Source: a virus
Lineage: Duplodnaviria; Caudoviricetes
Length of the DNA stretch: 64,000 nt
Virus record (IMG/VR): IMGVR_UViG_3300021431_000075
Coordinates: 480,001-544,000 of that record
Reading direction: 5' to 3' (one strand)
The position numbers and the translations under genes were made by a program. How positions within the stretch are numbered: the stretch's first letter is position 1; every line of letters starts with the position of its first letter. The notes under the pieces are model-generated. The model was not told the DNA's origin, searched no databases, and worked only from the letters and a program-made list of their open reading frames with translations. Positions 54,409-60,679 of the stretch are shown here, piece after piece.

Positions 54409-54882
54409 TTATTGTTCTTCTTCAACTTCAAAATTTTCAAGATTTGTAGATGGTTTCTTGCTCTTTCTTCCGTTCTTTGACGGACTCTTTTTCTCTTGAC
54501 TGTTTTCAACAGGTTCTCCGTCAAGCATGTATATGTTTCCTATTTGCAGCGTTTCCGGTTCTTCCATAATCGAGTTAGAGTCTATCGACTGTATATTTAG
54601 AATCTGTGAGAAAGATGCTTCGAACTTTTCGATTCTTTGCGTCAGGTTATTGAGTTGCTCATTGATTTTCACGAACTCGTCGCTGTTGTTGTTCTTCAAA
54701 TCTTCGTAGTTGACAGACAGTTCATCGAACTTCTCGTTGACTGTATCAACAGAATCGACAAGATCTCCGATGCCTTTCTTTTTGCCGCCGAGAATTACAA
54801 GAACAAGCATAATTATCTGAACTACAAATACTAATAATATTAATGTCGTTTGTAGTCCGCTGCTTAATAAAAGTGTTACCAT
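54409..54882 (-). CDS. Membrane-anchored coiled-coil protein
   Basis: N-terminal hydrophobic helix followed by a coiled coil; overlaps the M13 gene stop. Confidence 0.65.
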   Translation of the reverse strand: MVTLLLSSGLQTTLILLVFVVQIIMLVLVILGGKKKGIGDLVDSVDTVNEKFDELSVNYEDLKNNNSDEFVKINEQLNNLTQRIEKFEASFSQILNIQSIDSNSIMEEPETLQIGNIYMLDGEPVENSQEKKSPSKNGRKSKKPSTNLENFEVEEEQ

Positions 54883-56894
54883 AATTTCGCTCTTCTTTCT
54901 TTGTTTATATATAATTTATCATTCTTGCTTATTTTGAATGCTGAATACCACTCGTCGAACATCGGAAGTGTGCCGTTCACCCTGATGTAGTTGGGGCAAT
55001 GCTCGTCATTTTCTATTCTGTGCTTGATGACTTCTTCTGTCGATACGCCAGCCCAGCAGTTTGCAAAGTTGAGGAAGAAACGCTTCTTCCAGTCATAGCC
55101 GTCCTTCATCATTCCGTTCTTTCCGTACAGTTCTGCTTCGCTGAACATCGGTTCTCCGCGGTCATCTTTCATTGCAAGCAGTTCAGACAGGTATCGAACT
55201 TTTTCACCGTATATCATCTTAAGCGCGTTGTATGCAATCTTGAGACCGCCAAAGTCTGCGATATTCTCATTCAGCGTCAAGTCTCCGTTGCACTTGATTC
55301 CGGGAAGCGCGTAAATCTCGTTGAAATGGTCTCTTGTGTTCTCGGATAGTTCGTCGAACTCCTCACTTTCATCATCAGTCCACCAGTCGAACACGTTTCC
55401 GTCTATGCCGAACAGTCTTCCATAACTGTCAAAGCCGTGTGTCATCTCATGACCGATAATAACACCTATGCCCCCATAGTTGTCCGAATCATCCGCATCC
55501 TTGTTGAAGAACGGTTCCTGCAATACAGCTGCAGGAAAGCAAATCTCGTTCTTCATCGGACTGTAGCATGCATTGACTTTGTGTGCATACATCGGCCACT
55601 CTTCCATATCAACATCCTTGTCGAAATAGTCATTGATATATCTATTGTGAGAATATACCATAATCTCCCTTGTCATCTCGAAGTATGACACGTTGCTATT
55701 GACCGGCATGTCGGTATAGTCTTTCCACTTGTCCGGATAACCGACCTTGCACTTCATCATGGAAAGTTTCTTCAATGCATAGTTCTTTGTTTCCGGACAA
55801 AGCCATGACTGGTTTGATATGATTTCAGCATAACTTTTCTTAAGGTTTTCTATCAATAAAATCATCTTGTCTTTCGACTCTTTCGGAAAGAATTTCTCTA
55901 CATACTTCTGTGCAAATGTCTCACTGAAGAAACTTTCAACTTTGTCAAGTTCGCGTTTCCACAGTTCAGGTCTCTCTTTGACGCCGGTCATGAACTGAAT
56001 GAACTCGAATGCGATTTCTTCTATGTCAACTCTTAATGTATCTTTATAATTATCAATAAGATGGAAGATTGCATTGTCTTTCATCTCGACAAGAGTCATC
56101 GTGTTAATCAGTTCAAATGCTTTCTTGATGGCATCAACTTGAGCGATGTTCACTTTCTTCACATCGTTCATTCCGAACCAAGACAAATACTTGTTCAAAT
56201 CAAACTCGACAAGCTTGCTTGCTTCCTCTATATCCATCATATGATAGTTATACATCGGGTCCATGCACAGTTCTTCGATGCTGTATGAAACTTCCGCTAT
56301 CTGGCAGTCAAAGTCAATAACAGTGTCTATGATTCTGTCTATGTCGTTTTTCTGGAAATTGAGGGCAGTTAGAATATCAACCTTGTTCTTTGCAAACTTC
56401 TTCAGAACTTCTTGCTTGTACGGGTCGTTTGATGTGTAATATGACTTGTTGTTCAGAAGGAGCTTCTGTGAAAGCATCACTTCATAGTGGTTCGAATTCT
56501 TGAAATCCGGGACACACTCGACGCATAGCAAGAAATTGTATGCAAGTTCTTTCTGGCAGAATTCAATGACTTCGTCTTTTGTGTTGAAAGACATTATCTT
56601 GTTGATGTACGGAAGCATGACACGTATTCCTTCCGAGTCTCTTTTGTCATAGTTGGACATCGTCTTGTAGAATGTTGCAATCTTGTATGACATGACATCC
56701 CCGCCGCCGGGATTCTTAACAATCTCGTCAAGAATTTCCCGGTTCTGCTGTCTGACTTTGTTCTCTATGACATTCCAGCAGTCCCATTGTGCTTCGTCAT
56801 CAGGTTTCGGATTCAACTCAATCCACTTTCCGGTAGCAAACTTGAAAAAGTCGTCACCGGGCTTTATGTCATTATTAATATACTCTTTGTTCAT
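54876..56894 (-). CDS. pepO: M13 family zinc endopeptidase (PepO/neprilysin-like), no signal peptide
   Basis: PGDDFF...G.W, VGYPDKW, VNA.Y.P..NEI.FPA, GHEMTHGFD, ENIADFGG, R.NG. Confidence 0.93.
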   Translation of the reverse strand: MNKEYINNDIKPGDDFFKFATGKWIELNPKPDDEAQWDCWNVIENKVRQQNREILDEIVKNPGGGDVMSYKIATFYKTMSNYDKRDSEGIRVMLPYINKIMSFNTKDEVIEFCQKELAYNFLLCVECVPDFKNSNHYEVMLSQKLLLNNKSYYTSNDPYKQEVLKKFAKNKVDILTALNFQKNDIDRIIDTVIDFDCQIAEVSYSIEELCMDPMYNYHMMDIEEASKLVEFDLNKYLSWFGMNDVKKVNIAQVDAIKKAFELINTMTLVEMKDNAIFHLIDNYKDTLRVDIEEIAFEFIQFMTGVKERPELWKRELDKVESFFSETFAQKYVEKFFPKESKDKMILLIENLKKSYAEIISNQSWLCPETKNYALKKLSMMKCKVGYPDKWKDYTDMPVNSNVSYFEMTREIMVYSHNRYINDYFDKDVDMEEWPMYAHKVNACYSPMKNEICFPAAVLQEPFFNKDADDSDNYGGIGVIIGHEMTHGFDSYGRLFGIDGNVFDWWTDDESEEFDELSENTRDHFNEIYALPGIKCNGDLTLNENIADFGGLKIAYNALKMIYGEKVRYLSELLAMKDDRGEPMFSEAELYGKNGMMKDGYDWKKRFFLNFANCWAGVSTEEVIKHRIENDEHCPNYIRVNGTLPMFDEWYSAFKISKNDKLYINKERRAKLW

Positions 56895-56929
56895 CGAATA
56901 ATGAATGTAACTTATCTTTCTTTGTTTGT

Positions 56930-57919
56930 CTAAAACAGAGGCTGTGAGTGTACGAGATTGTTCGGTATTTGCTGGTATCCGAGAATGTCAAGGACTTTGT
57001 TGCAGAATGACAATATTGTTTTCTCGAACTGAATATCCATGTCTATGCTGACTCTGAACTCTCCCGGAAAACTCCCCGGAACATAGGCAAATACTTCATA
57101 AGGGTTGTTTGCTGCATTTGAATAGAACCACTTGATTTTATCAGCATTCTTAATCGGGTTGTATTTTACTTTGTACTTCTTGTTCTCCGGCTTGTTCAGG
57201 AAGTAGTTGTACACTCCTGCGGCCTTGATGTGAGCCGGACACTTGTCTGCAATCACAAGCTCTCCCTTGTCTTTCAGTATGTAGTTGTCATAGTTTCCGA
57301 CGGATGAGCCGAACGAAATCATATCCGGGTCCTTGTACTCGAAATCGGCTTTATATTTCTCTATTTTTCCGACAAGCATGTCAAGACTGAGTTTCTCGTC
57401 GTTGTCACGGTACCAGTCAAGAACGAACTTGACGAAGTCCTCCATGCATTCGCGTGCGTATTCGGACGTAGAACTCTTTACAATCTCAAGTCCCTTGTAT
57501 AGAATATGAGAGCCTTTCGGCAAGTAGATGTTAGGCTCCTCCCAGCATTTTGACATCGCATATCTTTTCTTTGCAAAAAGCAGAGTCGTGTCCGCTATCT
57601 TCTCGAGCTCAAGATTCTGTATGTTCTTGTCACAGTTGTATTCTTTTGCATACTCTTCATATTTATTATTCATGTACGGTCCGAGAGAATAGTTCCACAA
57701 GTCAACAACGAACTTCGTTTGATCTTCTTTTGGAACATTGCACCATTTCAAGATTCTTCCGAACTCTACATAAATCGAGTTGTGGACGAGAATTTCGTTC
57801 GCAAAAAACATATGGGTTTCGCCGACTTCGATGTCATATACATATTCATCATCAAAGTCCGGAAGCACTTCGATGCTTTTTATATTTTCTACCTTATAAT
57901 TTGTTTGACTAAAATCCAT
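56930..57919 (-). CDS. DNA polymerase B C-terminal fragment fused to split-intein C-half
   Basis: YVYDIEV...H.FFAN.ILVHN|S intein end, then SIYV, LELE, KKRYA, KGLEIVKSST; ATG at 57919 (the ORF track starts at a TTG at 57931). Confidence 0.92.
   Translation of the reverse strand: MDFSQTNYKVENIKSIEVLPDFDDEYVYDIEVGETHMFFANEILVHNSIYVEFGRILKWCNVPKEDQTKFVVDLWNYSLGPYMNNKYEEYAKEYNCDKNIQNLELEKIADTTLLFAKKRYAMSKCWEEPNIYLPKGSHILYKGLEIVKSSTSEYARECMEDFVKFVLDWYRDNDEKLSLDMLVGKIEKYKADFEYKDPDMISFGSSVGNYDNYILKDKGELVIADKCPAHIKAAGVYNYFLNKPENKKYKVKYNPIKNADKIKWFYSNAANNPYEVFAYVPGSFPGEFRVSIDMDIQFEKTILSFCNKVLDILGYQQIPNNLVHSQPLF
57779..57919 (-). mobile_element. Split intein C-fragment (about 47 aa)
   Basis: Blocks F and G with terminal His-Asn followed by Ser+1. 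Confidence 0.9.
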
Positions 57920-57989
57920 GATTTTTAACAATTAAAACATAAGCAAATAAACTTATAATGTGAAAATATAAGTATTTTCGCTTATAAAT

Positions 57990-58355
57990 TTAGACAGGAA
58001 TCTTGATGTACACGGGAATGTAATCCGTTTGACCTTTTTCTTTGAACAAGATAAACAAATAGTCGGTATCGAATTCAATATCGTTTGTTTTGACAGGATG
58101 CTCATCATCCAGCAAGTCAACATTCACGACGGTTTCTGAAGTTGCTCCGTTCGTGTCTGTGTACTGGATGATTTTGCCGCTCAATGAACCATGTGAATCA
58201 TCAAGAACGCTAAATCTCGTCACATAGTAGTTCTTGATCTCATATTTGCTTTTGTCTGCATCAAAAAACAAGTCATTTGAACCATTTGACATTTCGATTG
58301 TAATGCCTTCTTTTTCATTGCGTATCTTGTACTTTGAAGTTAGCGGATTTTCCAT
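57990..58355 (-). CDS. Hypothetical protein inserted between the split-intein halves
   Basis: 121-aa ORF; no HNH, LAGLIDADG or GIY-YIG motif visible. Confidence 0.7.
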   Translation of the reverse strand: MENPLTSKYKIRNEKEGITIEMSNGSNDLFFDADKSKYEIKNYYVTRFSVLDDSHGSLSGKIIQYTDTNGATSETVVNVDLLDDEHPVKTNDIEFDTDYLFILFKEKGQTDYIPVYIKIPV

Positions 58356-58365
58356 AAATTTAATT

Positions 58366-59409
58366 TTAAATTGTTATTATCTTGTCGGTTTCCGGATTTA
58401 TTTCTTGCGCAGTAACTGATATGAGAATTCCGTCCCTGACGACCATGCAAGAGTGATCTCCTGTCACGATGACTTCTTTGCCGGATTCTGTTGTTATCTT
58501 GTACTTTGACTTCTTGACCTTATGTCGCATGATGTATCTGATTTGTTTATCACAAACTGTATCTGTGCTTGCGTCATATGTCTTTGTCGTTAATGTGATG
58601 TCTGACGGCGCAGGTACGACTTGGGTTCCGTTCGGAAGCATTATTACAGTATCAATGTTCATGTACTTGATTGCAGCGAAAGCGTCTTTGATTGCTATCT
58701 TTTCATCATTTATATCAATAACCGAGTTCCCGTCAATGCTGTCTGTGTCTCCTGCCACGCTTAATGATTCAGTTCCGTCAAGATAATCATATTCTGGACC
58801 GGTCAAAGGCTTTGATTCCGTTGTCTTTCCCTTTGATATGTCGAATGTTCTTGCAAGTTCGGGATTGACTTTTAGTTTGTCCCATAATTTCGCATTTCTC
58901 TTGAACCAGTCGCAGTGACCTTGGCTGTTGTCCTTGATGCATCCGATTAGATCCGGCGTCAGTCTCTTTCCCTTTTTGACAGCAGGGACATAGCTCTCGC
59001 ATTCTTCCCATGTTCCGCTGGCATAATAGTCTTCCGGCTTTTCTTTTGAACCGAAGTCAAAACGTTTTCCATCTTTGTCTATGTGAATCCACTGGTAATG
59101 TAGAATAATGTCCGGATTGCTTTGAAAGATTCCGCTAAAGTACCTGTTCACAGAGTTCTCCGAGAAGTGGTTCAGGTCTCTTCCTTGCGCTGTAATGCTT
59201 TCTGCTATTGCCGTATTGTGTGCAAAGAAGTGCTTACTTCCCAATGCGCCATATACCGAGTTGATGAACTTCTTGATGGCAAGCTGCTTTGTCTCGAAGT
59301 ATCCGGCACGGCTGTGCAAGTCAACGACTTGTTTCTTCAATTCTTCTATTGGACAGTCATACGGATTCTTGAGCCACGCATACTTGAATTTGTCTATTTT
59401 ATTGTCCAT
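58366..59409 (-). CDS. DNA polymerase B fingers/palm fragment fused to split-intein N-half
   Basis: Motif B QLAIKKFINSVYGALG, AESITAQGR, AGDTD| then intein block A SIDGNSVI and block B VIVTGDHS. Confidence 0.92.
   Translation of the reverse strand: MDNKIDKFKYAWLKNPYDCPIEELKKQVVDLHSRAGYFETKQLAIKKFINSVYGALGSKHFFAHNTAIAESITAQGRDLNHFSENSVNRYFSGIFQSNPDIILHYQWIHIDKDGKRFDFGSKEKPEDYYASGTWEECESYVPAVKKGKRLTPDLIGCIKDNSQGHCDWFKRNAKLWDKLKVNPELARTFDISKGKTTESKPLTGPEYDYLDGTESLSVAGDTDSIDGNSVIDINDEKIAIKDAFAAIKYMNIDTVIMLPNGTQVVPAPSDITLTTKTYDASTDTVCDKQIRYIMRHKVKKSKYKITTESGKEVIVTGDHSCMVVRDGILISVTAQEINPETDKIITI
58369..58740 (-). mobile_element. Split intein N-fragment (124 aa)
   Basis: Ser1 directly after GDTD; TxDH block B; ends at a stop codon with no endonuclease domain or block G. 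Confidence 0.9.
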
Positions 59410-59447
59410 TTTTGCTTTTTTGAAAACCGATAAAAACTAAACCATCT

Positions 59448-59478
59448 ATTTTACAAAAAAAATGCCGAAAAGTTTAAA
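59448..59478 (-). promoter_or_regulatory. Phage class-II promoter TTTAAAC-N18-TAAAAT
   Basis: Upstream of the polB N-fragment gene. Confidence 0.7.
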
Positions 59479-59530
59479 ATAAAAAAGACAGAAATCAAAA
59501 TTTCATTGAAAACTGTCTTTTGCTTAATAG

Positions 59531-60679
59531 TTATTTCTTGTCTTTTGCTGTTTTTGAAGCAGTTGATGACTTTGATTTTGCTTTGCTTGACGCAGGTTTC
59601 TTCTTTGTAGCAGGTTTCTTTGCAGGAGACTTTGGCTTTGGTTTTGATGAAGTTGCTGCTGGTTTCTTTTCTTCAACCGGCTTTTCAACTTCAACTGGCT
59701 TTTCAACTTCAACTGGCTTTTGATCTTCAACTGGCTTTTGTTCTTCAACCGGCTTTTGTTCTTCAACCGGCTTTTGTTCTTCAACCGGCTTTTGTTCTTC
59801 AACCTGTTCTTTTTCCAGCGCTTCTGCTTCTTCAAGCATCTGAAGCATGTCAAGAGATTCTGCTGTGAATGGGTCGAGTTGTTCTTCGACTGGTTCTTCT
59901 GCTTTCGGAACCTCGATTTCCACTTTGTTCGGTTCTTCTTGTTCGGAAACCTCTTCAATGACGGCAGCATCTTCTATTGTTGCCACGACCGGTTCTTCTT
60001 CAATCTGTTCTTCTTCAACTGTTTCAGCAGTATCATCAACCCCAACAACTTTATCATCTTCTTCAATGTCATCATCAGTTCCGATGAAATCCCTTATCGC
60101 GTCAGCCATGTCTATTTCAGGCTTTTTGAAATCAACCGGAGCTGCTGGAGCATCTTGTGCTTGTGCCTCTATTTCCTTTATCTGTTCTGGAGTAAGCATC
60201 GTGGATTCTATGGTCTCGCTCTTGCGTGCCTGCTTTATCTTCATCGCTCTCCTGATTTTAGCAAGAGTGTCCTCAATTGAGTTCGCAGGATGCTCGACAA
60301 CCTTGATTCCAGCAGCCTTGTTGCTGCTCTTGTACGGTTCGTTCTCCAGACTTGTATGTTCGTCGAACTCGTCTTCCATCTGCTCGATTCTGTCCTGCCA
60401 GTTCTTGTAGTAGTCTTTCTGGTCGTTTATAATCTGATTCTCCTTAATCTTCATATATGCTTGCGCAGCATTGACATTATGGTTCATCCCTGTTATCACA
60501 TTAGGAACTCCGGTTTCCCAAGTTCCTTCTGTCGGACGCTCCACTACTCCGGAACCGTACTTCTGGTTCGGTCTATAGCTGTTGAAACTGCGGAAATAGT
60601 CTCCCCAGTCGTCAATCATATTGACTCTTGTCGTTGTCGGACCTGATGACAACGGAACATTTTTCTTCTTATTAGTCAT
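59531..60679 (-). CDS. Low-complexity protein: acidic region, (PVEEQK)n repeat and histone-H1-like basic tail
   Basis: 382-aa ORF with a K/A/P/S-rich C-terminus. Confidence 0.75.
   Translation of the reverse strand: MTNKKKNVPLSSGPTTTRVNMIDDWGDYFRSFNSYRPNQKYGSGVVERPTEGTWETGVPNVITGMNHNVNAAQAYMKIKENQIINDQKDYYKNWQDRIEQMEDEFDEHTSLENEPYKSSNKAAGIKVVEHPANSIEDTLAKIRRAMKIKQARKSETIESTMLTPEQIKEIEAQAQDAPAAPVDFKKPEIDMADAIRDFIGTDDDIEEDDKVVGVDDTAETVEEEQIEEEPVVATIEDAAVIEEVSEQEEPNKVEIEVPKAEEPVEEQLDPFTAESLDMLQMLEEAEALEKEQVEEQKPVEEQKPVEEQKPVEEQKPVEDQKPVEVEKPVEVEKPVEEKKPAATSSKPKPKSPAKKPATKKKPASSKAKSKSSTASKTAKDKK
59670..59805. repeat. 18-bp coding tandem repeat (KPVEEQ/KPVEVE)
   Basis: ttcttcaaccggcttttg-type units, about 7 copies. 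Confidence 0.9.

Follow-up and report, generated by a model that had tools for sequence, protein, structure and literature searches.

Three dispersed genes, two of them bearing the halves of a split intein, very probably make up the family-B DNA polymerase of a 673-kb phage genome

The window, that is, the whole stretch of 64,000 nucleotides analysed here, corresponds to G000:C1:480001-544000 of a 673,114-bp virus record, which carries direct terminal repeats and was rated 100% complete. The GC content is about 40%, and long ORFs are well readable under code 11. Within the window, two polymerase-related reading frames flank a small gene on the minus strand: piece 2, an ORF of 347 aa (58366-59409), and piece 3, an ORF spanning 56930-57931, the true start of which is the ATG at 57919. 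A further reading frame, piece 1, is placed outside the window. The features considered are the following, with positions in window coordinates unless the genome record is named:

56930..57778, minus strand: C-extein, gp43B-2-like, 282 aa plus stop (PF00136 positions 260-391; aligned to P0369 residues 639-916)
57779..57919, minus strand: C-intein, 47 aa from ATG 57919 (PF14890 positions 119-155; blocks F/G VYDIEVGETHMFFANEILVHN)
57990..58355, minus strand: ORF121, 121 aa, passenger gene between the intein halves, conserved in L005 and L007
58369..58740, minus strand: N-intein, 124 aa (PF14890, 1.3e-8; PDB 9HTH, 5e-13)
58741..59409, minus strand: middle extein, gp43B-1-like, residues 1-223 of piece 2 (PF00136 positions 149-201; aligned to P0369 residues 510-641)
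59449..59476, minus strand: candidate phage promoter TAAACT-N16-GTAAAA, 39 nt 5′ of the piece 2 ATG
59531-60679, minus strand: gene for a repeat-rich protein of 382 aa, 5′ of piece 2 (Cementoin Pfam match, 6.4e-9)
G000:C1:478274-479872, minus strand: piece 1, gp43A-like, 532-aa frame (PF03104, 3.7e-9; PF00136)

The middle extein comprises the second fingers helix and motif B, the palm with an insertion, and motif C as far as GDTD. As the initial annotation had stated, this segment is short (223 aa) and reaches motif B about 40 residues after its start, the sequence KKFINSVYG occupying residues 46-54 of piece 2. Motif C was read as VAGDTD|S at residues 218-224, with both of its aspartates on piece 2, and the alanine remarked upon earlier does stand where most PolBs have a tyrosine. 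Since A or G replaces this tyrosine throughout the clade, even in members that are unsplit or have no intein, the substitution gives no sign of decay. Between motifs B and C there is indeed an insertion, but it is smaller than the ~100 aa first proposed: the family alignment and the comparison with the Lak phages and the unsplit protein P0369 placed it at residues ~100-172, with a length of ~75-85 aa. This palm insertion is clade-specific and common to the nearer relatives, intein-free ones included; a zinc site within it was considered and rejected, as its three cysteines were not kept in all members. The gene 5′ of piece 2 (59531-60679) is indeed unrelated to polymerases, its repeat-rich product presenting tandem KPVEEQ-type repeats and a Lys-rich tail.

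The remainder of piece 2, residues 224-347, constitutes the N-intein and is followed by a TAA stop at 58366-58368. This segment matched the Aes123 PolB1 intein (PDB 9HTH) with a value of 5e-13 over residues 221-345, was alignable with the N-inteins of Aes508 and PTm1, and preserves the splicing residues Ser1, in SIDGNS, and the block B TxxH motif, in VTGDHS. The C-intein, which conforms to the pattern VYDIEV...H.F..N.ILVHNS, with HN followed by the +1 Ser, was alignable with the C-inteins of Aes508, PTm1, L005 and L007, whose genes begin at the equivalent Met. The intein has no catalytic Cys, and Ser1, TxxH, block F, HN and the +1 Ser are conserved across the family. In comparison with L005, a relative at 89% identity, dN/dS amounted to 0.08 in the N-intein and 0.03 in the C-extein, and dN was 0.065 for the middle extein; judged by these substitution ratios, the intein and the C-extein are under purifying selection. 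The homologous Aes123 PolB1 split intein, which belongs to the PolB genes of T4-like Aeromonas phages, is cysteine-less and naturally split, trans-splices in vitro and serves as a protein-engineering tool (PMC11923092, PMC12707363).

The C-extein of piece 3 starts with the +1 Ser of DTDS (SIYVEFGR) and continues with KKRY, the thumb and a C-terminal tail ending in PLF; a PF25408 match on piece 3 was under its cut-off and was dismissed as spurious. Directly 3′ of piece 3 lies a full-length gene for an M13 (neprilysin-type) metallopeptidase (54876-56894, minus strand), an unusual phage gene, and this synteny is kept in L005-L008. In L005, a TnpB-like gene (PF07282) and a Y1 transposase were found 3 kb downstream of the polymerase pieces (L005:11007-12949), with no counterpart in the window.

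No exonuclease domain or motif A was found in the window, as had been claimed from its sequence, and the sole PF03104 match in the whole genome lies outside it, at G000:C1:479099-479506. A profile search of the complete genome with PF03104 and PF00136 recovered PolB sequences at exactly three places, and the separate ORF foreseen in the initial annotation, with exonuclease and motif A and ending in the fingers domain, was thereby located at G000:C1:478274-479872. From its ATG, piece 1 encodes 529 aa (G000:C1:478274-479863, minus strand, equivalent to L001:676-2265), the same as in its database copy P0272. Its frame lies 128-1726 bases before the window start and ~59.5 kb from piece 2. It shares its strand with piece 3 and comes ~57 kb downstream of it, which gives the gene order middle, C, N. 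Piece 1 presents Exo I (FCDIEVD), Exo II (NFLNFD), Exo III (YQCID) and motif A (DFASLYPS), the exonuclease and motif A residues being invariant in 25 relatives, and ends ~30 residues past the first fingers helix YYNLRKQAKNDRK (YYNLRKQAK). The DNA_pol_B model was covered at positions 25-144 by piece 1 and from 149 onward by piece 2, which indicates that nothing is missing between the pieces.

With respect to other polymerases, a separate N-terminal PolB gene thus exists in this genome and no full-length PolB accompanies it, the PF00136 matches being confined to pieces 1, 2 and 3. A Pfam profile search of the whole genome found no second PolB and no PolA or Pol III alpha domains. A minimal split Pol III alpha has been described in this jumbo-phage group by Iyer et al. 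2021 (PMC7824862), and PF07733 might miss such a form, so that the family-B enzyme is to be understood as the only recognisable replicative polymerase. Three other PF14890 (Intein_splicing) matches were observed outside the window, at G000:C1:374339-374683 (+), 381056-381298 (+) and 560144-560512 (-); one of them is strong (3.3e-13, in a 521-aa frame) and one lies within a 944-aa frame, which indicates that inteins also occur in other genes of this phage.

The relationship among the three pieces was established by comparison with P0369, an unsplit and intein-free protein of 916 aa that is colinear with all of them, nothing being missing or duplicated. Its residues 1-486 correspond to piece 1 (45% identity), residues 510-641 to the middle extein (45-51%) and residues 639-916 to the C-extein (46%), and the gap at the fingers is spanned in this unsplit protein by ~23 aa. 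Moreover, the intein-free relatives P0020, P0031, P0036 and P0051 (518-563 aa), which start at the same fingers position as piece 2, presented the uninterrupted sequence GDTDSIYVEFGRI over the predicted junction, which fixes the splice site at D223|S1...HN|S+1. Taken together, the pieces hold the complete catalytic set of a T4 gp43-type polymerase, with Exo I-III and motif A on piece 1, motif B and GDTD on piece 2, and S and KKRY on piece 3. At the break in the fingers helices, the flanking parts are separate genes, each with its own start and stop.

When piece 1 was modelled in complex with the extein of piece 2, the ipSAE reached 0.81, against 0.00 for the best of three controls. Of 80 solved complexes, 58 attained this mark, as did 2 of 110 mismatched pairs. 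Many PolB structures having been solved, however, the result may stem from resemblance to them and is no demonstration that the chains bind. The runs had at least 95% of contacts in common, with a partner pLDDT of at least 76, and the modelled interface joined residues 489-528 to residues 4-56 and the motif A region to residues 58-87. Modelling of the complex had been proposed in the initial annotation. For finger-tip splits of the gp43A/gp43B type, biochemical work is on record for Aeromonas phage 25 only, whose gp43A and gp43B co-purify and show activity (PMC2988022, citing Petrov 2010). A Pfu polymerase split at the finger tip was still active (PMC3061061).

On the basis of these sequence comparisons, the replicative family-B (T4 gp43-type) polymerase of this phage is very probably made of three gene products, two of them trans-spliced and one associated non-covalently, which agrees with the earlier proposal of an active site built from one non-covalent partner and two spliced fragments, now supported by the finding of piece 1 and by the colinearity of P0369. 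In the proposed mechanism, the two halves of the intein would come together and join pieces 2 and 3 by trans-splicing at D223|S, generating a gp43B-like chain of ~505 aa. Piece 1 would then bind the spliced chain non-covalently, mainly by antiparallel pairing of the fingers helices and contact between motif A and the palm, and the outcome would be a complete two-chain polymerase-exonuclease. The split intein itself would derive from a "fractured gene" element whose free-standing VSR-like homing endonuclease was lost here and kept in relatives.

A first alternative holds that pieces 2 and 3 are never spliced and that three chains act non-covalently, held together in part by catalytically idle intein halves. 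Natural split inteins can splice poorly, the wild-type Aes intein reaching only about 30% in vitro, and protein trans-splicing has been shown for the Aes, CP21 and LCGC14 homologues only (PMC11923092, PMC12707363 for the latter point; PMC11923092 for the former). In addition, a passage of PMC3045599 describes the split NrdA enzyme of Aeh1 as assembling via interaction domains derived from a mobile element. Such an assembly is nevertheless unlikely here, given that all the splicing residues (Ser1, TxxH, block F, HN and the +1 Ser) are present family-wide, that purifying selection acts on the intein, and that the active site would probably be obstructed by an unspliced intein of 171 aa within motif C, beside the catalytic aspartates.

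It might also be argued that the pieces are the decaying remains of a pseudogene and that replication is carried out by a host enzyme or by another phage polymerase, as the gene is divided into three pieces in three reading frames, its homing endonuclease was lost and its motif C deviates from YGDTDS. This is very unlikely, because the catalytic motifs are all intact, dN/dS values are 0.03-0.08, hundreds of clusters keep the pieces without stops down to ~40% identity, the genome search brought up neither a second PolB nor a PolA or Pol III alpha, and the A/G of motif C extends to the unsplit forms of the clade. Judged by this conservation, the polymerase pieces are working genes, not relics.

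An artefact, whether by misassembly, an unrecognised intron, ribosomal bypass or an alternative code dividing a gene that is really contiguous, would find precedent in the code 15 of the Lak relatives and in the group I intron of the Aes508 gp43B-1 gene, but it is barely credible when piece boundaries are identical in independent assemblies (L005-L008 and 15 Lak genomes), when the pieces end in TAA and occupy three frames, when Rfam found no RNA family at E<=1 in window 56800-59600, and when the position of piece 1, which shares the strand of piece 3 and lies 57 kb downstream of it, leaves no read-through able to join the pieces in order. Accordingly, both the joining of piece 2, ORF121 and piece 3 by read-through or another genetic code and the presence of an intron or RNA element between the pieces were rejected.

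With the reading of three gene products as the preferred one, the expression of the pieces can be considered. The motif TAAAC-N17-GTA.A. has 46 copies in the genome, against 9-17 in shuffled sequences, and 41 of these 46 precede an ORF by at most 200 nt. At genome position 479929, a perfect copy (GTATAC) is found ahead of piece 1, 29 nt before the TTG and 38 nt before the ATG. The form TAAACT-N16-GTA(T/A)A(C/A) is a statistical pattern from which we infer a promoter function, and the promoter that the initial annotation had assigned to piece 2 at 59448-59478 coincides with a copy of this genome-wide motif at 59449-59476, its role as a promoter being putative. Since the same class of candidate promoter is found before pieces 1 and 2, these genes are probably expressed together. 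Piece 2, ORF121 and piece 3 are probably carried on one transcript, and no terminator-like sites were found in window 56700-59700.

ORF121 is located ten bases downstream of piece 2 and has homologues in the same place in L005 (64% identity) and L007 (27% identity), in addition to three clusters of further homologues (P0392-P0394). It belongs to no Pfam family; Foldseek against the PDB returned nothing at E<=0.001, the best Atlas score of 0.76 did not amount to a match, and its AlphaFold model is weak, with an all-beta fold and a pLDDT of 65. Neither Aes508_035 nor a 129-aa ORF of Lak-B8 presented similarity to ORF121. In L007, a relative at 60% identity, and in Lak-B8, the intein halves are separated by an ORF of 372-383 aa that is homologous to Aes508_035 (1e-23), with 41% identity between the two. 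This VSR-like endonuclease is absent from between the intein halves in the window and in L005, where only ORF121 is found; by its gene content, the locus of the window is an endonuclease-less derivative of a fractured-gene intein. It is conceivable, if improbable, that the scattering of the genes over 60 kb and the retention of ORF121 are functional, with ORF121 acting as an assembly or splicing cofactor or regulator and separate expression gating polymerase formation. If true, this would represent a post-translational switch on replication in megaphages.

Relatives of these genes are numerous. A word-indexed search with the middle extein recovered 156 clusters, most of them combining PF00136 and PF14890 in 265-365 aa and some on contigs of up to 531 kb, and an exhaustive search recovered 296 representatives, only a few of which were full-length proteins. 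In most of these 296 the match begins at about residue 8, which indicates that they start at the same finger-tip break. Similarly, piece 1 has 228 relatives of ~490-540 aa, on contigs of up to 744 kb, one of them being a 503-aa protein recorded at NCBI as "DNA polymerase" of Wendovervirus sonii (660-kb record). The related-locus search with the middle piece found no close relatives of the locus in viral contigs. L005-L008 and Lak-B8, which are independent assemblies, share the layout of the pieces described here.

Other arrangements were also observed among the relatives. Some piece 1 relatives matched PF03104 only, namely P0275, P0300, P0304, P0311-P0313, P0319 and P0341 (426-440 aa) and P0310 (823 aa); these cover ~80% of piece 1 and end just before motif A, and a further break or insert may exist at motif A in some phages. 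Conversely, P0365 and P0369 (914 and 916 aa) are unsplit and intein-free, with 45-51% identity to the proteins of this phage. As they are closer to it than the split gp43A of Aes508 (25%), either the finger-tip split has been undone by re-fusion or it originated more than once.

With the present analysis, the annotation of the replicative polymerase is settled for a phage genome that ranks among the largest on record. The same reading covers the unannotated records of Lak and other huge phages, whose enzyme has gone under the name of a "classic" family-B polymerase or plain "DNA polymerase". Where gene callers and marker-gene phylogenies expect a single PolB gene, they will instead meet three partial matches, at distances that can reach hundreds of kilobases. 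Many natural, cysteine-less split inteins akin to the Aes123 PolB1 intein used in protein engineering are also contributed by this family. In terms of mechanistic principle, nothing new is added.

Family-B polymerases made from separately encoded parts include the split-intein PolB of Nanoarchaeum equitans and the two-gene PolB of Methanothermobacter. These enzymes and that of phiKZ consist of two pieces, with other break points and in other lineages, and are not known to combine a non-covalent split with a split intein. The core of the two-chain phiKZ PolB (DNAP-N/DNAP-C) was solved by cryo-EM (PMC13648687).

Much closer is the system of Aes508/Aes123 (JN377894), which comprises gp43A, a Seg-like HEG, gp43B-1 with a group I intron and the N-intein, the VSR-like Aes508_035, and the C-intein with gp43B-2. 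The design in three pieces is shared, gp43A breaks off at the corresponding point of the fingers (residues 123-524 of P0001 are matched by residues 105-492 of the 498 of Aes508 gp43A), and a homologous cysteine-less intein is inserted at DTD|S (PDB 9HTH). The VSR-like endonuclease of Aes508 is homologous to that found in L007 and Lak-B8, relatives of the phage studied here. In Aes508, however, all pieces are gathered in one 5-kb cluster in N-to-C order, whereas piece 1 lies ~57 kb downstream of piece 3 in this phage, which has neither the intron nor the Seg or VSR endonuclease, carries ORF121 and the extra palm insertion of ~75-85 aa, and shares an extein identity of only ~25%. Tenacibaculum phage PTm1 (AP019524), whose host belongs to the phylum Bacteroidota, as do those of the Lak phages, likewise has three pieces, with both break points in the same positions and a homologous split intein, distributed as ORF-236, ORF-239 (an intein-containing precursor), a VSR endonuclease and ORF-241. 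Unlike in this phage, its pieces are in order within 6 kb, the endonuclease is kept and there is no palm insertion. Since Aes508 and PTm1 were annotated alike, the three-piece design was already known, and the novelty implied when this locus was initially described was overstated.

The closest named relatives, at 48-55% identity, are the Prevotella megaphages Lak-A1, B1-B9 and C1, together with the huge phages LR756500-504 and LR745206, in all of which these three pieces recur and piece 1 is unlinked. The distance to piece 1 is 9 kb in Lak-B8, ~223-227 kb in Lak-A1 and Lak-C1, where it is on the opposite strand, and 10-280 kb in LR756500-504 and LR745206; LR756504 appears to be intein-free. 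The GenBank records of the Lak and LR genomes carry no annotation, and the Lak papers and the jumbo-phage survey examined make no mention of a split PolB or of an intein in PolB. In contrast to the phage described here, the Lak phages retain the VSR-like endonuclease, have no palm insertion and are read under code 15. Compared with the annotated systems of Aes508 and PTm1, the present one differs in the dispersal of the genes, the loss of the homing endonuclease and the conserved 121-aa passenger between the intein halves.
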